This document shows, one piece after another, positions 2,505 through 9,523 of a DNA stretch of 64,000 bases; position 1 is the stretch's first letter, and each line of letters starts with the position of its first letter. The notes under the pieces were generated by a model. The model saw only the letters and a program-made list of their open reading frames with translations, was not told the origin of the DNA and did no database searches. The DNA lies in IMG/VR virus record IMGVR_UViG_3300045988_009865, positions 1 to 64,000 of that record; one strand, 5' to 3'. Position numbers and translations under genes: made by a program. This DNA comes from a virus. Taxonomy: Duplodnaviria; Heunggongvirae; Uroviricota; Caudoviricetes.

Positions 2505-3920
2505 ATGAGCGAGTTATTCAAACATGCGCACCTTCATGCAGGTCGAACTGAAAATGGTGCTGTAAACCATACTTCATCAATGTCTGCTCTGGTAGACTTT
2601 TACAAAGCCGCTGGCTCAAGCCGTAGCAATGTAGAAATCTTACCAGACCTGTTCTACAAAGCTTTGCGTGAGGATGTTGATGTTGCAGTTCGTATTTTAC
2701 TGCATATGCGAGATGTACGAGAAGGCATGGGTGAGCGTAAAGCTTTCCGAACTGTTTTACTTCAAGCGATTGAAGATAAGGTTTTAGAGCCTACACAGGT
2801 TCTTCGTATTATGGATAAGATTGCAGAACTTGGTCGTTTTGATGACTTCAAAATCTTCGTAGGTACTCGTTTTGAGACAGATGCCTTCAAACATTTAGAA
2901 GCAGCATTACTAGACCCTGCAACAGCAGGTTTAGCAGCTAAGTGGTTACCACGAGTAAAACCACGCCACAAACAGTTTGTAAAACGTTTCTGTAAGTTTG
3001 CAAACTTAAGCGAGAAAGAGTATCGCACACTGTTATCTGCACTGTCTGATACGGTTGAGCAAAAAATCTCTGCGAATGAGTTTGGTAAGATTGACTACAG
3101 CAAGATTCCTTCACTCGCTGCTGCACGTTACCAAAAACTCTTTAACCGTAAAGATGGAGAACGTTACAAAGCTTACATCGAATCACTATCAAAGGGTGAG
3201 GCTAAGATTAACGCTGGTGCTGTTTACCCATATGATGTGATTAAATCTATTAAGTATGGTAATGCAGATGTTGCTAATGAGCAGTGGAAAGCACTTCCAA
3301 ACTGGATGGCAGAAGGTGAAAACATCTTGTGTATGACTGATGTTTCAAGCTCAATGTCTTGGGTAAATCTTGGCTCAATTACTGCCCTTGATATTGGTGT
3401 ATCACTTGCCTTGTATGTAGCAGAACGCAATACAGGTTGCTTTAAAGATGAGTTAATGGTCTATTCAACAAACCCTCATTTCATTGAACTGAGTGGTGAT
3501 TTACGAAACCGTCATCGTCAGGTAATGCGTCATGTTGAATATGGTTCAACTAACTTACAAGCAGCTTTTGACCGTATTCTTGAGATAGGTAAGAGAAACA
3601 ACTTGACTCAGAAAGATATGCCAAGTAAGCTTATTATCTTCTCTGATATGGAGTTTAATCAGGTTGATGGTGCAAATGGTCGTACAAACTTTGAAGCAAT
3701 TCAGAGTAAGTACAAAAAAGCTGGATACGAAATGCCACAACTGGTATTCTGGTACTTAGCAAACCGTAATGGTACTTGCGAAGTATCCGTTAAGGATAAC
3801 GGTGTAGCAATGGTATCAGGGTTCTCTCCAGCCACTTTAAAAGCTCTGCTTGGTGGTGAGAAGTTTGACCCAATCAGCGTAATGCTCAAAGCAGTAATGA
3901 TTGACCGTTATATCTGGTAA
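2505..3920 (+). CDS. von Willebrand factor A (MIDAS) domain protein
   Basis: 471 aa; DxSxS MIDAS motif in MTDVSSSMSW; GAGAG RBS; N-terminal domain not recognised. Confidence 0.6.
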   Translation: MSELFKHAHLHAGRTENGAVNHTSSMSALVDFYKAAGSSRSNVEILPDLFYKALREDVDVAVRILLHMRDVREGMGERKAFRTVLLQAIEDKVLEPTQVLRIMDKIAELGRFDDFKIFVGTRFETDAFKHLEAALLDPATAGLAAKWLPRVKPRHKQFVKRFCKFANLSEKEYRTLLSALSDTVEQKISANEFGKIDYSKIPSLAAARYQKLFNRKDGERYKAYIESLSKGEAKINAGAVYPYDVIKSIKYGNADVANEQWKALPNWMAEGENILCMTDVSSSMSWVNLGSITALDIGVSLALYVAERNTGCFKDELMVYSTNPHFIELSGDLRNRHRQVMRHVEYGSTNLQAAFDRILEIGKRNNLTQKDMPSKLIIFSDMEFNQVDGANGRTNFEAIQSKYKKAGYEMPQLVFWYLANRNGTCEVSVKDNGVAMVSGFSPATLKALLGGEKFDPISVMLKAVMIDRYIW

Positions 3921-4084: not shown

Positions 4085-4161
4085 CTCTGTTTAGCTCAGC
4101 TTGGTAGAGCGTTCCGTTTGGGGCGGTAAGGCCGGAGGTTCAAGTCCTCCAACAGAGACCA
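4085..4161 (+). tRNA. tRNA-Pro (anticodon TGG)
   Basis: 7-bp acceptor CTCTGTT/AACAGAG, D-arm TAGCTCAGCTTGGTAGAGC, loop TTTGGGG, T-arm GGAGGTTCAAGTCCTCC, encoded CCA. Confidence 0.75.
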
Positions 4162-4168
4162 AATTAAT

Positions 4169-4246
4169 GTTCCAGTAGACAAAACGGTAAAGTCACCACT
4201 CTTTCAAAGTGGATATTTGAGGGTTCAAATCCCTTCTGGAACGCCA
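4169..4246 (+). tRNA. tRNA-Glu (anticodon TTC)
   Basis: acceptor GTTCCAG/CTGGAAC, anticodon arm CCACT-CTTTCAA-AGTGG, T-loop TTCAAAT, CCA. Confidence 0.8.
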
Positions 4247-4251
4247 GTTTT

Positions 4252-4327
4252 GACAGAAGACCAATTACAGCAAACTTAATCTTATTCATCTGACACGAAA
4301 TCGGACAAAGAAGAGATTTGGTCTGGT
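4252..4327 (+). repeat. covarying stem element copy 1 (CAGAAGACCAA ... TTGGTCTGG)
   Basis: AGACCAA 4258..4264 pairs with TTGGTCT 4318..4324; conserved ACAGCAA after 5' arm. Confidence 0.6.
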
Positions 4328-4337
4328 CATTAAGAAT

Positions 4338-4414
4338 TGCGGGTATAGAGAAAGGGCGTCTCACATGTCTCATTAGCATGGTATCGGCAGGTTCGACTCC
4401 TGCACCCGCCTCCA
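4338..4414 (+). tRNA. tRNA with CAT anticodon (Met or Ile2); register of acceptor ambiguous
   Basis: D-stem GAGA/TCTC, anticodon arm CATGT-CTCATTA-GCATG, T-arm GCAGGTTCGACTCCTGC, CCA; 1-72 mismatch or 6-bp acceptor. Confidence 0.5.
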
Positions 4415-4420
4415 ATTTTG

Positions 4421-4480
4421 CAGAAGACCGTATGCAGCAATAAACTACTTTTTGCGGATAAAAGAAAAAACACGGTCTGG
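4421..4480 (+). repeat. covarying stem element copy 2 (CAGAAGACCGT ... ACGGTCTGG)
   Basis: AGACCGT 4425..4431 pairs with ACGGTCT 4472..4478. Confidence 0.6.
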
Positions 4481-4491
4481 CAATGTATTAA

Positions 4492-4568
4492 GGTTAGGAA
4501 GCACATAAGGTATGTGCGGTCGCCTGTTAAGCGAATGGCACAGGGTTCGAATCCCTGACTAACCGCCA
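4492..4568 (+). tRNA. tRNA-Asn (anticodon GTT)
   Basis: acceptor GGTTAGG/ACTAACC (6/7), loop CTGTTAA, T-arm CAGGGTTCGAATCCCTG, CCA. Confidence 0.75.
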
Positions 4569-4577
4569 AATTTAAAT

Positions 4578-4665
4578 GTGTCGTTATCCCGTAGATGGTA
4601 GCGGTGGGGACTGTAAATCCCTTGTCATTGAGACTCGGTAGGTTCGACTCCTACACGGCACACCA
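4578..4665 (+). tRNA. tRNA-Tyr (anticodon GTA), long variable arm
   Basis: acceptor GTGTCGT/ACGGCAC, anticodon arm GGGGA-CTGTAAA-TCCCT, 15-nt variable arm, T-arm GTAGGTTCGACTCCTAC, CCA. Confidence 0.65.
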
Positions 4666-4671
4666 AATAAA

Positions 4672-4749
4672 GGTTATGTAGTTTAATCTGGTTAAAATAC
4701 TCCCCTGTCACGGGAGATGATGAGGGTTCAAATCCCTTCGTAACCGCCA
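4672..4749 (+). tRNA. tRNA-Asp (anticodon GTC)
   Basis: acceptor GGTTATG/CGTAACC, anticodon arm CTCCC-CTGTCAC-GGGAG, T-loop TTCAAAT, CCA. Confidence 0.8.
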
Positions 4750-4835
4750 AATTATAATAAGTATTTCAAGATGATGTTTTGAGAGGGCTATTTAGCCCCT
4801 CCCTTAAAGAGTTCTTACGAGTATTCTTTAAAGGA

Positions 4836-4910
4836 GCAGAAGACCAAATACAGCAAGTTACTTAAAATTTCAAGCCAATTTAATTTTGAAAAATTTAAAA
4901 CTTGGTCTGG
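4836..4910 (+). repeat. covarying stem element copy 3 (CAGAAGACCAA ... TTGGTCTGG) enclosing palindrome TTTCAAG..TTTTGAAA
   Basis: AGACCAA 4840..4846 pairs with TTGGTCT 4902..4908. Confidence 0.6.
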
Positions 4911-4923
4911 CTCAACAAATTTA

Positions 4924-5055
4924 CAGAAGACCGTTTACAGCAAAAACTAAACAATCTATTTCTCCGGTAAAGAAAAGGCGAAGGTTCGATTCCTTCACTC
5001 GGCAGATGTCGAGTTGGTGTAATGGTAGCACTTAAGATGATAAACAACGGTCTGG
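4924..5055 (+). repeat. covarying stem element copy 4 (CAGAAGACCGTT ... AACGGTCTGG) enclosing the permuted tRNA-like locus
   Basis: AGACCGTT 4928..4935 pairs with AACGGTCT 5046..5053 (8 bp). Confidence 0.6.
4959..5032 (+). pseudogene. circularly permuted tRNA-Thr(GGT)-like locus: 3' half, GAT linker, 5' half
   Basis: 3' half 4959..5004: anticodon arm TTTCT-CCGGTAA-AGAAA, T-arm GAAGG-TTCGATT-CCTTC, acceptor 3' ACTCGGC, A73; 5' half 5008..5032: acceptor 5' GTCGAGT (7/7 with one G.U), D-arm GTGT-AATGGTA-GCAC; C at position 33. Confidence 0.45.
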
Positions 5056-5062
5056 TAATTGT

Positions 5063-5194
5063 CTTTGTAGATAAGTTATTAAGCTTACCTGTGAGTATGC
5101 GACCACAAAGGGTGAAAGGGTAAATTCTAGATTTAAACCCAACAAGGCACATCGCTACAGACCTTAAGCAAGTCTGGGTAGCTTATCTACAAAG
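5063..5194 (+). ncRNA. long imperfect hairpin element (possible small structured RNA)
   Basis: 13-bp inverted repeat CTTTGTAGATAAG 5063..5075 / CTTATCTACAAAG 5182..5194 closing about 105 nt; no tRNA fold. Confidence 0.3.
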
Positions 5195-5204
5195 ATAATT
5201 TAAT

Positions 5205-5280
5205 GGAAGTGTAGCAGAATGGTGATGCGGCAGACTTTTAATCTGACAGGCGATGGGTTCGAATCCCTCCACTTCTACCA
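5205..5280 (+). tRNA. tRNA-Lys (anticodon TTT)
   Basis: acceptor GGAAGTG/CACTTCT (G1.U72), loop CTTTTAA, T-loop TTCGAAT, CCA. Confidence 0.7.
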
Positions 5281-5284
5281 ATAT

Positions 5285-5361
5285 GGTTCAGTCGCAGATA
5301 AGGTAATGCAGGGGTCTCATAAGCTCTATGAATGTGGGTTCGATTCCCATCTGAACCTCCA
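5285..5361 (+). tRNA. tRNA with CAT anticodon (Met or Ile2)
   Basis: perfect acceptor GGTTCAG/CTGAACC, loop CTCATAA, T-arm GTGGGTTCGATTCCCAT, CCA; anticodon stem has wobble pairs. Confidence 0.6.
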
Positions 5362-5362
5362 A

Positions 5363-5438
5363 GCTGGTATAGTTAAGAAGGTTATAACACTCCCCTGATA
5401 AGGGAACATCGGTGGTTCGATTCCACCTACCAGTACCA
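5363..5438 (+). tRNA. tRNA-Ile (anticodon GAT)
   Basis: acceptor GCTGGTA/TACCAGT, loop CTGATAA, T-arm GGTGGTTCGATTCCACC, CCA. Confidence 0.75.
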
Positions 5439-5453
5439 ATTTCAATAAAGTTG

Positions 5454-5482
5454 TTGACATTGAGATGCGACTACTTTATAGT
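5454..5482 (+). promoter_or_regulatory. sigma70-like promoter (TTGACA, 17-nt spacer, TATAGT)
   Basis: -35 5454..5459, -10 5477..5482; directly downstream of tRNA-Ile; drives region holding the tag-like mini-ORF and tRNA-like element. Confidence 0.55.
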
Positions 5483-5531
5483 AACCTTAGTTTTCGTTGC
5501 GTAGCGTCTATTTTGCAAATTTAAAATAAAT

Positions 5532-5567
5532 GCAAACGACAATGTTTTTCTGGCAGTAGCTTGATAG
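5532..5567 (+). other. tmRNA-tag-like mini reading frame GCA AAC GAC AAT GTT TTT CTG GCA GTA GCT TGA TAG (ANDNVFLAVA, double stop)
   Basis: starts with GCA and encodes an AND-initial, Ala-rich decapeptide with tandem stops, resembling tmRNA resume/tag frames; no ATG or RBS in frame. Confidence 0.3.
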
Positions 5568-5715
5568 GCTAAACACCAGTGAGGTCTTCCAATCCCTCAT
5601 CAAAGAATTTGGCGTACTAGCCCACGGTATGATTAATAAGGTGGGCAACATTCTAAAGGGTATCCCTTATGGGGCTTGGCTTAAATGCAATGAGTACCCT
5701 TTAAAATGTTAATTA

Positions 5716-5797
5716 CGGGGCGTATCTCAGCGGTCTTCTAAACCGCCGTTAACCGAGTAAGTGGAGTATGCGGGTTCGAGTCCTGCCGCCTCGACCA
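5716..5797 (+). ncRNA. aberrant tRNA-like structure: Ala-type acceptor (G3.U70, A73, CCA), Arg-type loop (CTTCTAA), no canonical D-arm, 23-nt extra segment
   Basis: acceptor CGGGGCG/CGCCTCG 7/7 with G3.U70; perfect hairpin GCGGT-CTTCTAA-ACCGC; T-arm GCGGG-TTCGAGT-CCTGC; only 7 nt between acceptor and anticodon-like stem. Confidence 0.5.
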
Positions 5798-5813
5798 ATT
5801 TTGGATGAAATCA

Positions 5814-6160
5814 TGAAAACTTGTATTAGGTGCAAACTTAGCAAGGATGAAAGTGATTTCTACATGAAAGATGGTAGGAGAACTCATTCATACTGTAAAA
5901 AGTGTGTTAATGAGCAAACCATAGAAAGACAAAGAGCACTTAAACTTTCAGCTATTGAGTACAAAGGTGGGATTTGTCATGATTGTGGTAAAAGGTATCA
6001 TCCAGCAGTGTATGACTTCCATCATTTGAATCCTTCAGAGAAAGATTTTAACATTGGTCATAGAAAAAGTCTTAAGTTCTCTCAGGAGCTAAAAGATGAA
6101 CTTGACAAATGTGTTTTGCTATGTTCAAATTGCCATAGGGTAAGACATGCAAAGTATTAG
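5814..6160 (+). CDS. HNH homing endonuclease
   Basis: CxxC...CxxC zinc motifs and YDFHHLNPSEKDFNIG...LLCSNCHR HNH core; ATG at 5814 preferred over track start 5768, which lies inside the tRNA-like element. Confidence 0.7.
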
Positions 6161-6297
6161 TTAGCAGATTGCTTAGACGACCTTATCGGGTCTCCGTGTA
6201 AGGAGGTGGTCTGTATCTCATGTTTTCCAGAACATGTAAATAATCTGAGAAGGGGCTTTACAGTGTTGCGAAAATACGGTAAGCTTCGAATTATAGT

Positions 6298-6380
6298 GTG
6301 GGACGATGTTAAGACTCTAAGGCATGAGCAACGGCCTCCAAAACCGTTTCAAAGGGGTTCAACTCCTCCGTCCCATGCCA
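6298..6380 (+). tRNA. tRNA-Trp (anticodon CCA)-like with about 7 extra nt in the D region
   Basis: acceptor GTGGGAC/GTCCCAT (G1.U72), loop CTCCAAA, T-arm AGGGGTTCAACTCCTCC, CCA; D region 26 nt rather than about 19. Confidence 0.45.
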
Positions 6381-6393
6381 AAGTCTTATTAGG

Positions 6394-6481
6394 GGTAGGT
6401 AGCGGCTAATGGCAGCCAAACAGTCTTGAAAACTGTTGCCACTGTAGAGATACGGTGAGGGTTCGACTCCTTTACTTACCG
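6394..6481 (+). tRNA. tRNA-Ser (anticodon TGA), long variable arm
   Basis: acceptor GGTAGGT/ACTTACC, anticodon arm ACAGT-CTTGAAA-ACTGT, about 20-nt variable arm, T-loop TTCGACT. Confidence 0.65.
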
Positions 6482-6637
6482 CCTAATAAGATTTAAAGCC
6501 AAGCTTCATTCGGATGTTGCTTTGGTATCCCTCGTGTATTGTCGTACACGCACAGTAAAGCACCTAGTAGGTGTCACGGAGAAGAGATAATATCAAGCTC
6601 TCCAAAGGTTCTAGTCACCGGATTAAACAAGACTATG

Positions 6638-6662
6638 CAAAGACCAATTTAGGTCTTTTTAG
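6638..6662 (+). terminator. hairpin AAAGACCAATTTAGGTCTTTTT (minimal AGACCAA/GGTCT unit plus T-run)
   Basis: stem AGACC/GGTCT followed by TTTTT; same AGACCAA word as stem elements 1 and 3. Confidence 0.4.
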
Positions 6663-6739
6663 AGGGCTTCTAAGGTTATTACAGCTTGTTGTGGAACCTT
6701 GTTGCTTAGGTTCTTAGAAGTTCTCTAAAAAGATTTAAT

Positions 6740-6817
6740 GGGAGATTGACGGTAATTGGTAAACCTACCATCCTTAGAAGTTGGTGTTTGAGGGTTCGAA
6801 TCCCTTGTCTCCTACCA
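6740..6817 (+). tRNA. tRNA with anticodon TAG (Leu-type anticodon) but short variable arm
   Basis: acceptor GGGAGAT/GTCTCCT, loop CTTAGAA, T-arm GAGGGTTCGAATCCCTT, A73, CCA. Confidence 0.5.
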
Positions 6818-6824
6818 AATTAAT

Positions 6825-6900
6825 GCAGGTGTAGCAAAATGGTTATGCGGCTGACTCTTAATCAGTAAGACGATGGGTTCAATTCCCTCCACCTGTACCA
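6825..6900 (+). tRNA. tRNA-Lys (anticodon CTT)
   Basis: acceptor GCAGGTG/CACCTGT, anticodon arm GCTGA-CTCTTAA-TCAGT, T-loop TTCAATT, CCA; body resembles the Lys(TTT) gene. Confidence 0.65.
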
Positions 6901-6906
6901 AACATT

Positions 6907-6982
6907 GGGGATGTAGTTTACATGGTTAAAACATAAGTTTTGCAAACTTAAGTACAGGGTTCAATTCCCTGCTTCTCCACCA
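6907..6982 (+). tRNA. tRNA-Ala (anticodon TGC)
   Basis: acceptor GGGGATG with G3.U70, anticodon arm TAAGT-TTTGCAA-ACTTA, T-arm CAGGGTTCAATTCCCTG, A73, CCA. Confidence 0.75.
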
Positions 6983-6988
6983 ATTAGT

Positions 6989-7063
6989 GCATCCATAGTT
7001 TAAACGGGAAAATTACAGTCTTCCAAACTGAGGTTGAGGGTTCGATTCCCTCTGGATGCTCCA
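6989..7063 (+). tRNA. tRNA-Gly (anticodon TCC)
   Basis: perfect acceptor GCATCCA/TGGATGC, loop CTTCCAA, T-loop TTCGATT, CCA. Confidence 0.8.
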
Positions 7064-7070
7064 AATTAAT

Positions 7071-7147
7071 GCTGCTTTCGTATAATTGGCTATTACACAT
7101 CCCTTGTAAGGATGGAAATGCAGGTTCGAGTCCTGTGAGCAGCACCA
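7071..7147 (+). tRNA. tRNA-Thr (anticodon TGT)
   Basis: acceptor GCTGCTT/GAGCAGC, anticodon arm CATCC-CTTGTAA-GGATG, T-loop TTCGAGT, CCA. Confidence 0.8.
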
Positions 7148-7242
7148 ATTCAGAGGTCAAGTGAAAGACCGCTGGTGTCAACTGAAGACCGTAACAAATT
7201 CCACGGAGTTGAGTTAGCGGCACAACTTCAGACCTCTTTCAT

Positions 7243-7317
7243 ACTCGCTTAGTTTATATGGTAAAACACCACCCTTACAAGATGAAGAAAAAGGTTCAAG
7301 TCCTTTAGTGAGTACCA
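7243..7317 (+). tRNA. tRNA, probably Val (anticodon TAC); anticodon stem weak
   Basis: acceptor ACTCGCT/AGTGAGT, D-stem GTTT/AAAC, loop CTTACAA, T-arm AAAGGTTCAAGTCCTTT, CCA. Confidence 0.5.
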
Positions 7318-7318
7318 T

Positions 7319-7396
7319 GTTCCAGTATCCCAATTGGCAGAGGATGCAAGCTCAAACCTTGTATTAGTGACGGTTCGAATCCGTCTTGGAACACCA
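7319..7396 (+). tRNA. tRNA with anticodon CAA (Leu-type anticodon) but short variable arm
   Basis: acceptor GTTCCAG/TTGGAAC, D-loop CAATTGGCAGA, anticodon arm GCAAG-CTCAAAC-CTTGT, T-arm GACGGTTCGAATCCGTC, A73, CCA. Confidence 0.55.
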
Positions 7397-7412
7397 ATTT
7401 TAGGAGAACACT

Positions 7413-7520
7413 ATGAGTGATAAGTCAATTGCAAAAAAGTTTATAGCGTCATTCAAAAATAGGCGTAAAAACAAAGATTGTGAAAAACTGTATGGTGTTC
7501 TTGTAGGTAAGCAGGATTAG
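7413..7520 (+). CDS. small hypothetical protein (35 aa) inside the tRNA cluster
   Basis: AGGAG RBS 7 nt upstream of ATG 7413; MSDKSIAKKFIASFKNRRKNKDCEKLYGVLVGKQD; stop overlaps 5' end of tRNA-Arg. Confidence 0.25.
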   Translation: MSDKSIAKKFIASFKNRRKNKDCEKLYGVLVGKQD

Positions 7521-7586
7521 TTCAAATGGATAGAGCAACAGTCTACGAAGCTGTTAATAGGGGTTCGAATCCCTTATCCTGCGCCA
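7511..7586 (+). tRNA. tRNA-Arg (anticodon ACG)
   Basis: perfect acceptor GCAGGAT/ATCCTGC, D-arm GTTCAAATGGATAGAGC, loop CTACGAA, T-loop TTCGAAT, CCA. Confidence 0.8.
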
Positions 7587-7605
7587 ATTTAAAGAGGCTA
7601 TTTAG

Positions 7606-8163
7606 ATGAGATATTTGAAGTATGCTTCATGGATTTTCTTAGCTTTGTTAGAGCCATTTGCAGCAATCTTAGCAGTTATCTTAGCACCTTTCGTAGTTCC
7701 ATTTTACAGTGAGAAGAAAGGACACTTACCTTTTGGATTCAGATGGATGGAGACATATGATAACCCAATTGATGGTGATAAAGGTCATGTCGAACGATGG
7801 GCTAAGATTAGAAAGGTTGGTAAGCTTGGTGTCTATTTGCAGAGAGTTGGATGGCTCTGGAGAAACAAAGCTTATAACTTCTCTTACCATGTGTTAGGAA
7901 GAGATGTAAAAGATGTTACTAAGTGGAAAGGTAATATCAACGTAAGTTCTGACCCTGAAGATAATCAGACAGGTTATCTCCTGATGTGGAACAGTAACGC
8001 TTGGGGATTATTCGCCTTTATCCCATCAATTAAAATCTTCGGTAAACAATTCTACTGGAGAATTTATGTTGGATGGAAACTTAAAAGTGTTGTCCCAGAA
8101 GAAAGAGCATTCTCAAGGGAAAGAGTTATGTTGGCATTCTTTATTCATCCACTAAGAAAGTAA
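7606..8163 (+). CDS. hypothetical membrane protein embedded in the tRNA cluster
   Basis: 185 aa; hydrophobic N-terminus; AAAGAGG RBS. Confidence 0.55.
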   Translation: MRYLKYASWIFLALLEPFAAILAVILAPFVVPFYSEKKGHLPFGFRWMETYDNPIDGDKGHVERWAKIRKVGKLGVYLQRVGWLWRNKAYNFSYHVLGRDVKDVTKWKGNINVSSDPEDNQTGYLLMWNSNAWGLFAFIPSIKIFGKQFYWRIYVGWKLKSVVPEERAFSRERVMLAFFIHPLRK

Positions 8164-8171
8164 AGATTTAA

Positions 8172-8247
8172 AGGGGATTAGTTTACAAGGTTAAAACCTC
8201 GGTCTTTGAAATCGAAGAAGTTGGTTCAATTCCAACATCCCCCGCCA
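8172..8247 (+). tRNA. tRNA-Gln (anticodon TTG)
   Basis: acceptor AGGGGAT/ATCCCCC (weak 1-72 pair), anticodon arm TCGGT-CTTTGAA-ATCGA, T-arm GTTGGTTCAATTCCAAC, CCA. Confidence 0.7.
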
Positions 8248-8249
8248 AT

Positions 8250-8328
8250 GCTCCATTACTCCAATTGGCAGAGAGGCCAGACTTAAAATCTGTGTTATGT
8301 ATCGGTTCGAATCCGATATGGAGTACCA
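8250..8328 (+). tRNA. tRNA with anticodon TAA (Leu-type anticodon) but short variable arm
   Basis: acceptor GCTCCAT/ATGGAGT, D-loop CAATTGGCAGA, anticodon arm CCAGA-CTTAAAA-TCTGT, T-arm ATCGGTTCGAATCCGAT, A73, CCA. Confidence 0.55.
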
Positions 8329-8333
8329 AATTT

Positions 8334-8409
8334 AGCGGTATAGCATAACTGGCAATGCAGCAGTCTCTGAAGCTGTCTTATTAAGGTTCAAATCCTTATG
8401 CCGCTGCCA
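8334..8409 (+). tRNA. tRNA-Gln (anticodon CTG)
   Basis: acceptor AGCGGTA/TGCCGCT, D-stem GCAT/ATGC, loop CTCTGAA, T-arm TAAGGTTCAAATCCTTA, CCA. Confidence 0.65.
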
Positions 8410-8440
8410 CTTCTAAGGGTTCTTACGAGAGTCCTTAAAT

Positions 8441-8516
8441 GTGGCCTTATCATAAAAGGTAATGACCCATGCTGTGAACATGGTCTATACGGGTTCAAAT
8501 CCCGTAGGTCACCCCA
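8441..8516 (+). tRNA. tRNA-His (anticodon GTG)
   Basis: acceptor GTGGCCT/AGGTCAC, perfect anticodon arm CCATG-CTGTGAA-CATGG, T-arm ACGGGTTCAAATCCCGT, CCA. Confidence 0.8.
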
Positions 8517-8521
8517 ATTTA

Positions 8522-8598
8522 TAGTCCAAGTAGCTTATATGGTTAAAGCGCGTGTCTGAAAAACATGAGAAGAGGGTTCAAATCCCACTGGACTACCA
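8522..8598 (+). tRNA. tRNA-Phe (anticodon GAA)
   Basis: acceptor TAGTCCA/TGGACTA 7/7, anticodon arm CGTGT-CTGAAAA-ACATG, T-loop TTCAAAT. Confidence 0.7.
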
Positions 8599-8614
8599 AT
8601 TTCAAAGGTGCTTA

Positions 8615-9349
8615 ATGAAAGAGATGACAGAACAAGGTAAGGAGATTTTTAATCTCTTAAAAACCGGTAGAGGGTTTTCTAATCCCCTTATTACTGGTGC
8701 AGCAGTTCTCGGTGGAACCGTAGCTGCCTCTACATCACTTGTAAGCTCTATTAGCTCTGTAACAGACCCTACAATGAAGGATAAGCTCATTGCTGCTGGA
8801 CTTACAACAGTTCTGCTTAGCAGCTTTACAACGAGTCTGACAAGCACTACATCAACCACTAAAACACTGACAGATTACGGTCAAAAGTCTATTGATGAGT
8901 TTTCATCACGTATGCAGGTAGCAAAAGGCTACTCCAATGTTATGGGTGCAGCAGGAGAGCAAGTTGGTTGTACACCATTTAGTGGTATTATGGGTGTTGC
9001 TACAGAGTATGGTCAAAAAGCTATTGACACAATTAACAGTGCACTAGACGGTGTTAATGATGTATTAAGTGACTTACAAGATGCTATTGATAAAGGTCTT
9101 GATACTGTTTCTGATTTAGCTAACCAAGCTGTTAGTAAGATTAATGAAGGTATCTCGAAGATTACAGCTTATGCAGATGAAGTTGTGCAGATGATTGAAG
9201 AAGAAGCTGCCCTTATTGCAGAGTACCTTAAAACGAATATCAATGGGTTCTTAGCAGGTATCTTACCAGACTGGTTTGATGATGCTTGTAAAACTGGTGT
9301 GATTGACACTATTGCAACACCAGAAATGAAGAACGCATTACAGAAATAA
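8615..9349 (+). CDS. hypothetical protein (Ser/Thr-rich N-terminal half)
   Basis: ATG at 8615 preferred over track GTG start 8552, which overlaps tRNA-Phe; AAAGGTG RBS. Confidence 0.5.
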   Translation: MKEMTEQGKEIFNLLKTGRGFSNPLITGAAVLGGTVAASTSLVSSISSVTDPTMKDKLIAAGLTTVLLSSFTTSLTSTTSTTKTLTDYGQKSIDEFSSRMQVAKGYSNVMGAAGEQVGCTPFSGIMGVATEYGQKAIDTINSALDGVNDVLSDLQDAIDKGLDTVSDLANQAVSKINEGISKITAYADEVVQMIEEEAALIAEYLKTNINGFLAGILPDWFDDACKTGVIDTIATPEMKNALQK

Positions 9350-9350
9350 T

Positions 9351-9443
9351 GGAAGATTAACCCTAAAAGGTAAGGGAGCAGTTTGCTAAACTGCCAGTAG
9401 CTGAGAAATCGGTGTACCAGTTCAAGTCTGGTATCTTCCTCCA
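9351..9443 (+). tRNA. tRNA-Ser (anticodon GCT), long variable arm
   Basis: perfect acceptor GGAAGAT/ATCTTCC, anticodon arm GCAGT-TTGCTAA-ACTGC, long variable arm, T-arm ACCAGTTCAAGTCTGGT, CCA. Confidence 0.75.
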
Positions 9444-9447
9444 ATTT

Positions 9448-9523
9448 GAATCCGTGACAGAAATGGCTATGTGCCTGTCTGCAAAACAGGTTTATAAGGG
9501 TTCGAGTCCCTTCGGATTCTCCA
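9448..9523 (+). tRNA. tRNA-Cys (anticodon GCA)
   Basis: perfect acceptor GAATCCG/CGGATTC, anticodon arm CCTGT-CTGCAAA-ACAGG, T-arm AAGGGTTCGAGTCCCTT, CCA. Confidence 0.8.

Follow-up and report, generated by a model that had tools for sequence, protein, structure and literature searches.

A widespread phage RNA resembles the message half of transfer-messenger RNA and is complementary to the message region of host tmRNA

The DNA stretch analyzed here (the window; 64,000 nucleotides (nt), positions 1 to 64,000 of IMG/VR record IMGVR_UViG_3300045988_009865) belongs to a Felix O1-like phage (Felixounavirus, Ounavirinae) and carries, at positions 5488–5715, a ~230-nt RNA that is best read as the message half of a transfer-messenger RNA (tmRNA) without the tRNA half. 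The RNA is conserved in many phages, its ten-codon frame bears coding-type constraint, its structure covaries, no tRNA-like domain accompanies it in cis, and its 5′ domain matches the message region of host tmRNA in antisense throughout the family. Having no tRNA-like domain, it fails as a tmRNA proper, and its most plausible role is that of a message domain provided in trans. We put forward, as a model to which we give a little less than an even chance, that the phage RNA would dock on host tmRNA and substitute its own tag template. The promoter and the parts of the RNA that carry this argument are as follows.

5454–5482, plus strand: sigma70-like promoter, TTGACA-17-TATAGT, 11 of 12 consensus positions matching
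5488–5516, plus strand: 5′ antisense domain, UAGUUUUCGUUGCGUAGCGUCUAUUUUGC, complementary to nt 77–106 of host tmRNA
5517–5531, plus strand: single-stranded A/U-rich linker, with AUAAAU (5526–5531) abutting the resume codon
5532–5567, plus strand: tag frame, GCA...GCT encoding ANDNVFLAVA (5532–5561), then the stops TGA and TAG (5562–5567)
5550–5579, plus strand: helix-5-like stem-loop, outer stem CUGG/CCAG, inner stem UAGC/GCUA, stops in the loop
5580–5612, plus strand: pseudoknot a, stem 1 UGAGG/CCUCA (5580–5584 with 5595–5599), stem 2 formed by loop CCAA (5589–5592) with UUGG (5609–5612)
5613–5646, plus strand: pseudoknot b, stem 1 CGUAC/GUAUG, stem 2 GCCCAC/GUGGGC, conserved loop GAUUAAUAA

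A tmRNA-type tag template

The frame reads GCA AAC GAC AAT GTT TTT CTG GCA GTA GCT TGA TAG, that is, ANDNVFLAVA followed by two stops, and its opening nine nt, GCAAACGAC, equal the start of the Escherichia coli ssrA tag frame (nt 90 of ssrA, in locus L011). The original prediction for this locus had pointed to this frame, to the nine-nt identity, to the good promoter upstream and to the want of an upstream 5′ acceptor strand that rules out a one-piece topology, and all four observations stand. It had also held that, should no tmRNA model match and no continuous transcript join tag and tRNA-like element, the identity would be a chance 9-mer. ARAGORN and Rfam indeed called no tmRNA, every model staying below threshold, but that condition was too strict: the frame goes far beyond a chance match because ten codons and a stop are conserved with coding-type substitutions, and it is the absent tRNA-like half, not a spurious tag, that makes the tmRNA models fail.

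This conservation was measured on a set of members retrieved by a pattern in pseudoknot b alone, which avoids circularity. GCA with ten codons and a stop occurs in 90 of 100 unique upstream regions. Three more are Ackermannviridae members that read GCT AAT GAT AAC ACG TTC CTG GCA GTA GCT TAA, in which codons 1 and 2 have changed synonymously (GCA AAC to GCT AAT) and the peptide is preserved; four are chance pattern matches, and the last three, first parsed as the four-codon ANNC*, turned out on closer location to hold the ten-codon frame. All 31 distinct tag DNAs in the set consist of ten sense codons plus a stop (TAA in 28, TAG in 2 and TGA in 1), and they open with GCA except for two that open with GCT. 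Codons 4–6 are highly variable, yet tag length is constant. Entropy at codon positions 1, 2 and 3 is 0.64, 0.54 and 1.10, the third being the most variable, and synonymous changes make up 29% of pairwise codon differences in the tag frame versus 2% and 6% in the other two frames, which contain stops in 27 and 25 of the 31 sequences. The tags of a first eight-way alignment (ANDNVFLAVA, ANDNTFLAVA, ANDDVVLMAA, ANEEMYLAVA, ANEDTYLAVA and ANDAQFLAVA) likewise all have ten codons and a stop.

Neither an in-frame start codon nor a Shine-Dalgarno sequence could be read at the tag frame. The hexamer ATAAAT precedes the resume codon in 81 of 95 tags of the pattern-retrieved set, and no variant loses the A at −4 or −3; at the equivalent site E. 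coli ssrA reads AUAGUC, its A86 (position −4) being a determinant of frame selection via SmpB. An AUG in another frame overlaps the resume codon; the frame that it would open runs into a stop within 30 nt in 27 of the 31 sequences and has 2% synonymous differences. The start-less internal frame, the Ala resume codon and the upstream context are thus those of a one-piece tmRNA, and at the level of sequence they support the mini-frame as a genuine tmRNA-type tag template.

The structure downstream was read from the sequences and then tested on an alignment of 67 non-redundant members, where 83.6% of all cells pair and 18 of 28 pairs have changed on both sides. The covariation score is 0.269; none of 500 shuffles reaches it (0.136), and controls with partners slid by 1–3 columns give 0.03–0.11. 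Pairing in the helix-5-like stem is complete (100%), in 17 sequences a GC pair has become AU by a double change, and the switch between tags ending in LAVA and LMAA covaries with CCAG/UCAG on the opposite strand, so that the final tag codons are constrained both as codons and as a stem. Stems 1 and 2 of pseudoknot a are 87% and 91% paired, with both-side changes in three of five and four of four pairs, and three compensatory pairs distinguish Sf16 (Mooglevirus). Stem 1 of pseudoknot b is 98% paired, with double changes in three pairs; stem 2 swaps as a block by lineage (GGCCC/GGGC, GGCCCUGA/UCAGGGC, GGCGGGAG/CUCCCGCC) and, being misaligned by MAFFT, is only 52% paired as counted. The helix 5 and pseudoknot part has no significant similarity to ssrA. 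A stop codon at helix 5 followed by pseudoknots is the arrangement of one-piece tmRNA, and resume signal, tag, helix 5 with its stop and pseudoknots together make up, in this predicted form, a tmRNA-like message domain.

Antisense complementarity to host tmRNA

The stretch of host tmRNA that the 5′ domain matches, nt 77–106, comprises the end of the PK1 pseudoknot, the A-rich linker, the resume codon and codons 1–6. The conserved 5′ motif of the phage RNA is the exact complement of host tag codons 3–6 (ACGAAAACUA), and the match extends further, as is seen when UAGUUUUCGUAAGCGACUUUGCGGGUUUUUAGAAAC of the Klebsiella phage KpV2811 is set against the reverse complement of E. coli ssrA nt 66–107, GUAGUUUUCGUCGUUUGCGACUAUUUUUUGCGGCUUUUUAC. 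For the window, the predicted duplex with the host RNA has 24 base pairs (bp) and −27.1 kcal/mol, and local alignment to the ssrA reverse complement gives a score of 28, which none of 500 shuffles (mean 14.5) reaches. Across the family, 5′ domains score 24–28 and shuffles 14–15 with a standard deviation (SD) of 2; for most members 0 of 500 shuffles reach the score. Among the 67 members of the alignment, the mean score is 26.3 in antisense versus 14.4 in sense, the aligned target always lies within nt 68–106, and the antisense z has a median of 5.7 and exceeds 3 in 53 members. Predicted duplexes span 20–43 bp and in long forms take in host nt 55–106; the best ssrA window always falls in nt 45–143 (the PK1/message region). 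Mean duplex energy is −37.5 kcal/mol with host nt 49–125 and −13.6 when the partner is the message region of the RNA itself; in 67 of 67 members the pairing with the host is the stronger. No other part of the phage RNA has a comparable match to ssrA. Extended, conserved complementarity beyond both chance and self-pairing is what a trans-encoded antisense RNA would be expected to display, and by this sequence measure the phage RNA qualifies as a candidate.

Conservation in the 5′ domain is confined to blocks that pair with host-specific sequence, GUUUUCG, GCGAC, UUUGCGG and UUUUUAG, the spacers between them differing in both length and composition; of 174 family members, 172 have GUUUUCG. The constancy of these blocks is explained by the host target, which hardly varies among the 118 gammaproteobacterial tmRNA genes sampled, mostly from Enterobacterales and including Erwinia and Pectobacterium. 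A tmRNA that differs within nt 68–106 is the Yersinia/Sodalis type, ...AAUAAUU GCA AAC GAC UCG CAA. The segment that host and phage tags have in common (GCAAACGA) is mostly unmatched by the antisense domain, an omission that would limit self-pairing. Between the duplex and the phage resume codon the predicted unpaired linker measures 10 nt in 39 of the 67 members, and in native E. coli tmRNA 11 nt separate PK1 from the resume codon.

A cis hairpin, in which the 5′ domain folds onto the RNA's own resume region, was considered and rejected on the family-wide energies given above; it is further contradicted by block A of the host-pairing blocks, which is nearly invariant while the RNA's own codons 3–6 vary. 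Pairing of block A in cis with the Ackermannviridae leader AACGAAAAG was discarded as well, that leader not being conserved (phage 38 has AACGGCAAG).

No linked tRNA-like half

The RNA would be transcribed from the promoter at 5454–5482, to judge from its sequence and placement: the −10 box ends about 5–7 nt before the conserved 5′ motif, and a promoter ~7 nt ahead of (U)AGUUUUCG recurs in Sf16, Erwinia phage Ea_Tu10, KpV2811 and SSU5. The start of the mature RNA, or a processing site, would lie near UAGUUUUCG. In a subset of Felixounaviruses (D4, GEC_vB_B1, PMBT20 and others) an insertion separates the −10 box from the first base of the RNA:

L003:1687–1775 (phage D4), corresponding to window 5486/5487: ~89-nt insertion

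Promoters abut the 5′ motif in five lineages and leave no room for a 5′ acceptor strand; on reading the sequence, no strand upstream of the tag is complementary to any downstream acceptor 3′ strand, and no T-loop motif occurs within 5488–5715. ARAGORN finds no tmRNA in the window or in any of 130 loci, and at gathering thresholds Rfam reports no tmRNA in the window and nothing in eight lambdoid-type or other prophage and phage loci. At permissive thresholds RF00023 reaches 11.9 bits (gathering score 47), aligning only model positions 84–140, the tag region, and the permuted model RF04321 reaches 27.5 bits in the window (gathering score 47); elsewhere, two-piece or permuted models score 28.9 bits in Salmonella phage UTK0002 and 26.3 bits in L193. 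The RF04321 score, too, comes from the tag region; the helix columns of its alignment are non-pairing, and no 5′ strand complementary to UACCAGU follows. In the N4-like UTK0002 the RNA closes with a clean intrinsic terminator, GCCCAUC...GAUGGGCUUUUUUU, and no T arm. Of a one-piece tmRNA the phage RNA therefore lacks the acceptor-stem domain, the T arm with helix 2 and a score above the RF00023 threshold, and of a two-piece tmRNA (RF04321) an acceptor piece upstream of a matching coding piece.

Several ways of completing the molecule were tried and given up. A permuted topology using tRNA-Ile is a cmscan artefact that borrows the T arm of the bona fide tRNA-Ile at 5363–5438. A homology of GUUUUCGU to the tmRNA D-loop GGAUUCGAC and a 391-nt one-piece model for the prophage of E. 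coli 55989 (GUUGUGG...CCACAAC CCA) were both dropped, since most lambdoid members, among them L039, L044 and L061, have no upstream GUUGUGG and promoters abut the motif in five lineages. A permuted acceptor within the 26-nt motif of the 3′ module described below (CUCCC-UUAU-GGGGCU) has different registers in Felix and lambdoid copies and no T arm.

By tblastn, SmpB has no match in records of this phage family and matches only outside it; many of the smpB-bearing records outside are temperate-phage or prophage records whose smpB is host-identical. The family would thus depend on host SmpB.

Genomic context and distribution

In the window the RNA lies inside an array of 25 tRNAs called by ARAGORN (4085–9523), flanked by tRNA-Ile (5363–5438) and an HNH endonuclease gene. 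Region 5300–6300 shares 99% identity with Escherichia phages vB_EcoM_D4 and I14.1; with Felix O1, which covers 94% of it, identity is 96.5%. A blastn search with 5440–5715 matches 630 phage records, and the core, ~5523–5647, is conserved across groups that otherwise have little in common. At least seven enterobacterial phage and prophage groups carry the RNA: within the Ounavirinae the Felixouna-, Moogle- and Kolesnikvirus, and beyond them Ackermannviridae (Kuttervirus and Klebsiella phages), N4-like Schitoviridae, SSU5-like phages, KpV2811-like siphoviruses of Klebsiella and E. coli (~46 kilobases (kb)), phiEcoM-GJ1 and lambdoid prophages. A copy is present in 137 of 5426 complete E. coli genomes, and among the matches listed no annotated feature underlies the E. 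coli copies. In lambdoid prophages, as in the E. coli 55989 copy, the RNA sits between the gene for antiterminator Q and a holin gene, downstream of the late terminator, a position from which it would be a late, Q-dependent product.

The family is extended to a further phage group by a divergent member in Escherichia phage phiEcoM-GJ1 (L148:1786–1900), with the tag ANDSEMRVAA and its host-complementary blocks GUAGUUUUC and UUGCGACUGUUUU split by a ~40-nt insertion. The sequence GUAGUUUUCUGAGUC in L148 and L153 had been entertained as the sign of a host tag of the ‘DSENY’ type; this was rejected, since L148 is this E. coli phage with blocks A and B split by the insertion.

The RNA has no family in Rfam 15, and in the records examined it underlies either no feature or hypothetical-protein calls only. 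A full-text literature search, whose coverage is limited so that absence is no proof, found nothing on this RNA or on its tag peptides. A 2025 tmRNA database paper counts 79 phage tmRNA sequences and distinguishes standard, intron and permuted gene forms as well as forms without a coding sequence (CDS-less) (PMC11915505); the available part of its supplement text makes no mention of phage, Salmonella, Escherichia, Klebsiella or Erwinia.

A proposed mechanism and its alternatives

We posit that the phage RNA, which by itself would be unable to enter the ribosome, pairs with the single-stranded message region of host tmRNA and, within PK1, invades the 3′ strand. The pairing would tether it to an Ala-charged, SmpB-bound host tmRNA, mask the host tag frame and bury the host resume codon in duplex. 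The two strands being antiparallel, the phage strand would leave the duplex on the PK1 side, where the host linker normally exits, and would present its own linker, AUAAAU and GCA resume codon instead of those of the host, the hybrid making use of the host alanyl-tRNA-like domain and host SmpB. Rescued peptides would then receive (A)ANDNVFLAVA rather than (A)ANDENYALAA, and across the family AAN(D/E)xx(F/Y)LAVA or ...LMAA. That a parasitic coding piece in this manner replaces the host message domain, leaving the virus to decide the tag on every rescued polypeptide, is the furthest-reaching form of the proposal, and we give it slightly lower odds than the model as first stated. Flynn et al. in 2001 reportedly found that SspB reads AAND..Y and ClpX the C-terminal LAA; if so, the part read by the adaptor is retained in the phage tags and the part read by ClpX altered, and an LAVA or LMAA terminus behind a retained AAND..Y/F could redirect or blunt ClpXP/SspB-dependent proteolysis in late infection.

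Several points weigh against this model. Its support is wholly computational, and the target is invariant in all known hosts, which makes a phage-host covariation test impossible. In short forms, that of the window included, the duplex is only 2–3 SD better than mononucleotide shuffles, a modest margin that reflects how readily U-rich sequence pairs with the A-rich linker of the host, and the minimum free energy structure of the window can fold the 5′ domain onto its own linker and resume region. A duplex of 20–40 bp could be a substrate for RNase III, cleavage then destroying the hybrid. In D4-type Felixounaviruses, Ackermannviridae and lambdoid prophages the primary transcript begins upstream of the antisense domain, which processing would have to free. 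The model also demands that the ribosome load a hybrid branch in place of the tmRNA loop and that LAVA or LMAA bring some selective benefit over ALAA, and the tRNA-like RNAs found near the tag RNA in many phages may matter.

The same antisense evidence would serve an RNA that acts as an inhibitor and nothing else, masking the host message domain or triggering RNase III and so shutting down or blunting trans-translation in late infection, with its frame unused. Duplexes of 20–43 bp are long enough for RNase III. A precedent of sorts exists in the CDS-less tmRNA of mycobacteriophage DS6A described in the database paper (PMC11915505). We nonetheless consider pure inhibition unlikely: the 5′ domain alone would suffice for it, and it leaves unexplained the fixed ten codons, the synonymous pattern, the use of three stops, AUAAAU, helix 5 and the two pseudoknots.

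A second alternative gives the phage a two-part tmRNA of its own, in which the tag RNA joins a tRNA-like acceptor downstream, as one uncleaved transcript or as two pieces. The candidate partner and the module that separates it from the pseudoknots are these:

5647–5710, plus strand: 3′ stem-loop module with a 26-nt conserved loop, CCCUUAUGGGGCUUGGCUUAAAUGCA = CCCTTATGGGGCTTGGCTTAAATGCA
5716–5797, plus strand: odd tRNA-like gene, RF00005 31.7 bits (gathering score 29), no ARAGORN call

The original prediction had drawn attention to an Ala-identity tRNA-like element ~150 nt downstream of the tag, and it is there, on the same strand, with an acceptor stem CGGGGCG/CGCCUCG containing G2:C71, G3:U70 and G4:C69, followed by A73 and CCA; a UCU anticodon loop and a T arm are present, seven nt stand in place of a D arm, and the variable region has 23 nt. 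The features that speak for a partnership are G2:C71, G3:U70, G4:C69, A73, CCA, the missing D arm and the proximity, together with the fact that other phages frequently have tRNA-like elements not called by ARAGORN a few hundred nt or less from the tag RNA; one such element, from the E. coli 55989 prophage, matches the tRNA-like-domain part of RF00023 with 20.2 bits (E = 4.5e-6). The slot of the window's element behind an unchanged tag RNA, however, is filled by a canonical tRNA-Arg(UCU) in Sf16 and in the Felixounaviruses L055 and L036, by tRNA-Leu as the next gene in Erwinia phages and by the terminator in UTK0002; because tRNA-Arg and tRNA-Leu take this slot in relatives, the element is not a conserved partner. 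Its anticodon stem-loop is maintained by a compensatory change (G-C to U-A in the anticodon stem of the relatives L074 and L042), and its pairing with the tag RNA, which the original prediction had proposed to look for, amounts to −45.3 kcal/mol, no better than shuffles (mean −49.7). No specific complementarity links it to host tmRNA/ssrA either. RNase P would split the two RNAs, other neighboring tRNA-like RNAs have an acceptor without G3:U70 (UGUGGUG/CGCCACA), and the conserved antisense domain would be left without a role. As a tmRNA tRNA-like domain the element thus falls short overall, G3:U70, A73 and CCA notwithstanding, and a two-part phage tmRNA is very improbable. Of the tmRNA hypothesis, then, the tag template survives (frame, context, helix 5 and pseudoknots), whereas its union with the downstream element does not (slot, pairing, no model call).

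Least credible of all is an ordinary structured leader, processing or spacer RNA, or a conventional mini-open reading frame, whose likeness to tmRNA is superficial or a relic of ssrA: the RNA does lie in tRNA arrays or late-operon leaders beside other structured modules and has the out-of-frame AUG across its resume codon, but the in-frame start codon and the Shine-Dalgarno sequence are both absent, the frame of the AUG lacks conservation (27 of 31 sequences reach a stop within 30 nt), and a relic would not retain host-complementary blocks and a ten-codon frame in at least seven phage lineages.

Neighboring elements

The element at 5716–5797 is, judging from the compensatory change in its anticodon stem among relatives, probably functional, and could be an Ala-accepting decoder of AGA/AGG or some other tRNA mimic. 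Its 5′ end, when cut by RNase P, would set the 3′ end of the tag RNA. The 3′ module at 5647–5710 is probably part of the same primary transcript as the tag RNA; it has no Rfam match and no significant similarity to ssrA. Its exact 26-mer loop is present in at least 119 IMG/VR viral contigs, within closing stems that differ and compensate; the module adjoins the tag RNA in 36 of 122 loci and otherwise occurs apart from it.

Leaders of late operons in lambdoid and related phages (L193:3920–4373 in the E. coli 55989 prophage, L044, L116, L120, L022 and L087) contain arrays of RNA modules with long closing stems, ACAGGUAAGAGCAUU ... AGUGCUCUUAUCGUUGUG. The same leaders hold ~125-nt tRNA-like RNAs, without exception uncalled by ARAGORN, whose acceptor is UGUGGUG/CGCCACA with discriminator A and either CCA or CCC, and whose T stems covary strongly; the E. 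coli 55989 element with the RF00023 match mentioned above is one of this kind.

Within the window, a further tRNA-like sequence at ~6305–6390 (plus strand) has GGGACG...CGUCCC, a CCA-containing loop and the T-arm-like GGGGUUCAACUCCUC; neither ARAGORN nor Rfam calls it, a tRNA-Trp is annotated in the matching slot of phage VpaE1_ev78, and a 67-residue open reading frame (6206–6409) overlaps it. Immediately upstream of the tRNA array, 2505–3920 (plus strand) encodes a 471-residue protein with DUF2828, DUF7788 and a weak VWA domain, labelled ‘RNA-binding protein’ in phage D4, which may be linked to the many tRNA-like RNAs of the region. In Klebsiella phage Bullseye, a long region annotated with tiny hypothetical open reading frames only contains, ~1 kb downstream of the tag RNA, a match to the small RNA STnc100 (L004:2598–2812; Rfam, 53.4 bits, above the gathering score of 47).

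Significance and comparison with known systems

If the proposed docking and template exchange were borne out, the hybrid would be a tmRNA assembled in trans between two organisms, and would add a new phage route to taking over a core quality-control pathway and a new target class for small RNAs of phages. It would also offer a natural experiment on the requirements of tmRNA in the stretch that leads from PK1 to the resume codon. The RNA itself is common yet unannotated, with the 630 matching records from phages and the copies in 137 of the 5426 complete genomes of E. coli given above, prophages of pathogenic strains included, and Felix O1-like phages and Kuttervirus are used in therapy and typing.

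Compared with one-piece tmRNA (SsrA, RF00023), the phage RNA shares a start-less frame opening with GCA AAC GA(C/U/A), an A/U-rich upstream sequence with A at −4, a ten-residue tag of the form AN(D/E)xx(Y/F), close to ANDENYALAA, a stop in the loop of the following helix with pseudoknots behind it, and a distance of ~10–11 nt from a helical domain to the resume codon. It differs in having no closing acceptor stem, T arm or helix 2, no recognizable PK1, in whose place stands the antisense domain, two pseudoknots after helix 5 instead of three, and a tag that ends in LAVA or LMAA, not ALAA. With the two-piece tmRNAs of Alpha- and Betaproteobacteria and cyanobacteria (RF04321, RF01849–51), to whose models the phage tag region aligns best (AUAAAUGCAAACGAUAA...), it would have in common a function split over two base-paired RNAs. 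In the known two-piece forms, however, both pieces derive from one gene and pair via acceptor stem and helix 2, the coding piece contributing the 5′ acceptor strand, whereas the phage coding RNA has no acceptor strand and its proposed partner is a complete host tmRNA, engaged via its message domain.

AgvB and AsxR, encoded by prophages of enterohemorrhagic E. coli, are anti-small RNAs that act as sponges or mimics for Hfq-dependent small RNAs, and the present RNA resembles them in being encoded by a phage or prophage and in having a short conserved stretch that is complementary to one particular, abundant RNA of the host; we know of no RNA of this type that targets tmRNA or carries a translatable tmRNA-type template. 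tmRNA is regarded as self-contained, and its two exceptions, permuted two-piece genes and CDS-less forms, are single-gene or template-less. A further parallel is the DS6A RNA, a CDS-less tmRNA consisting of the tRNA-like domain only, which is reported to inhibit host tmRNA in E. coli (PMC11915505). There too, as proposed here, a phage-encoded fragment of the tmRNA system acts on host trans-translation, and the two are mirror images: DS6A has the tRNA-like half without a tag frame, and this family the tag half without a tRNA-like half.

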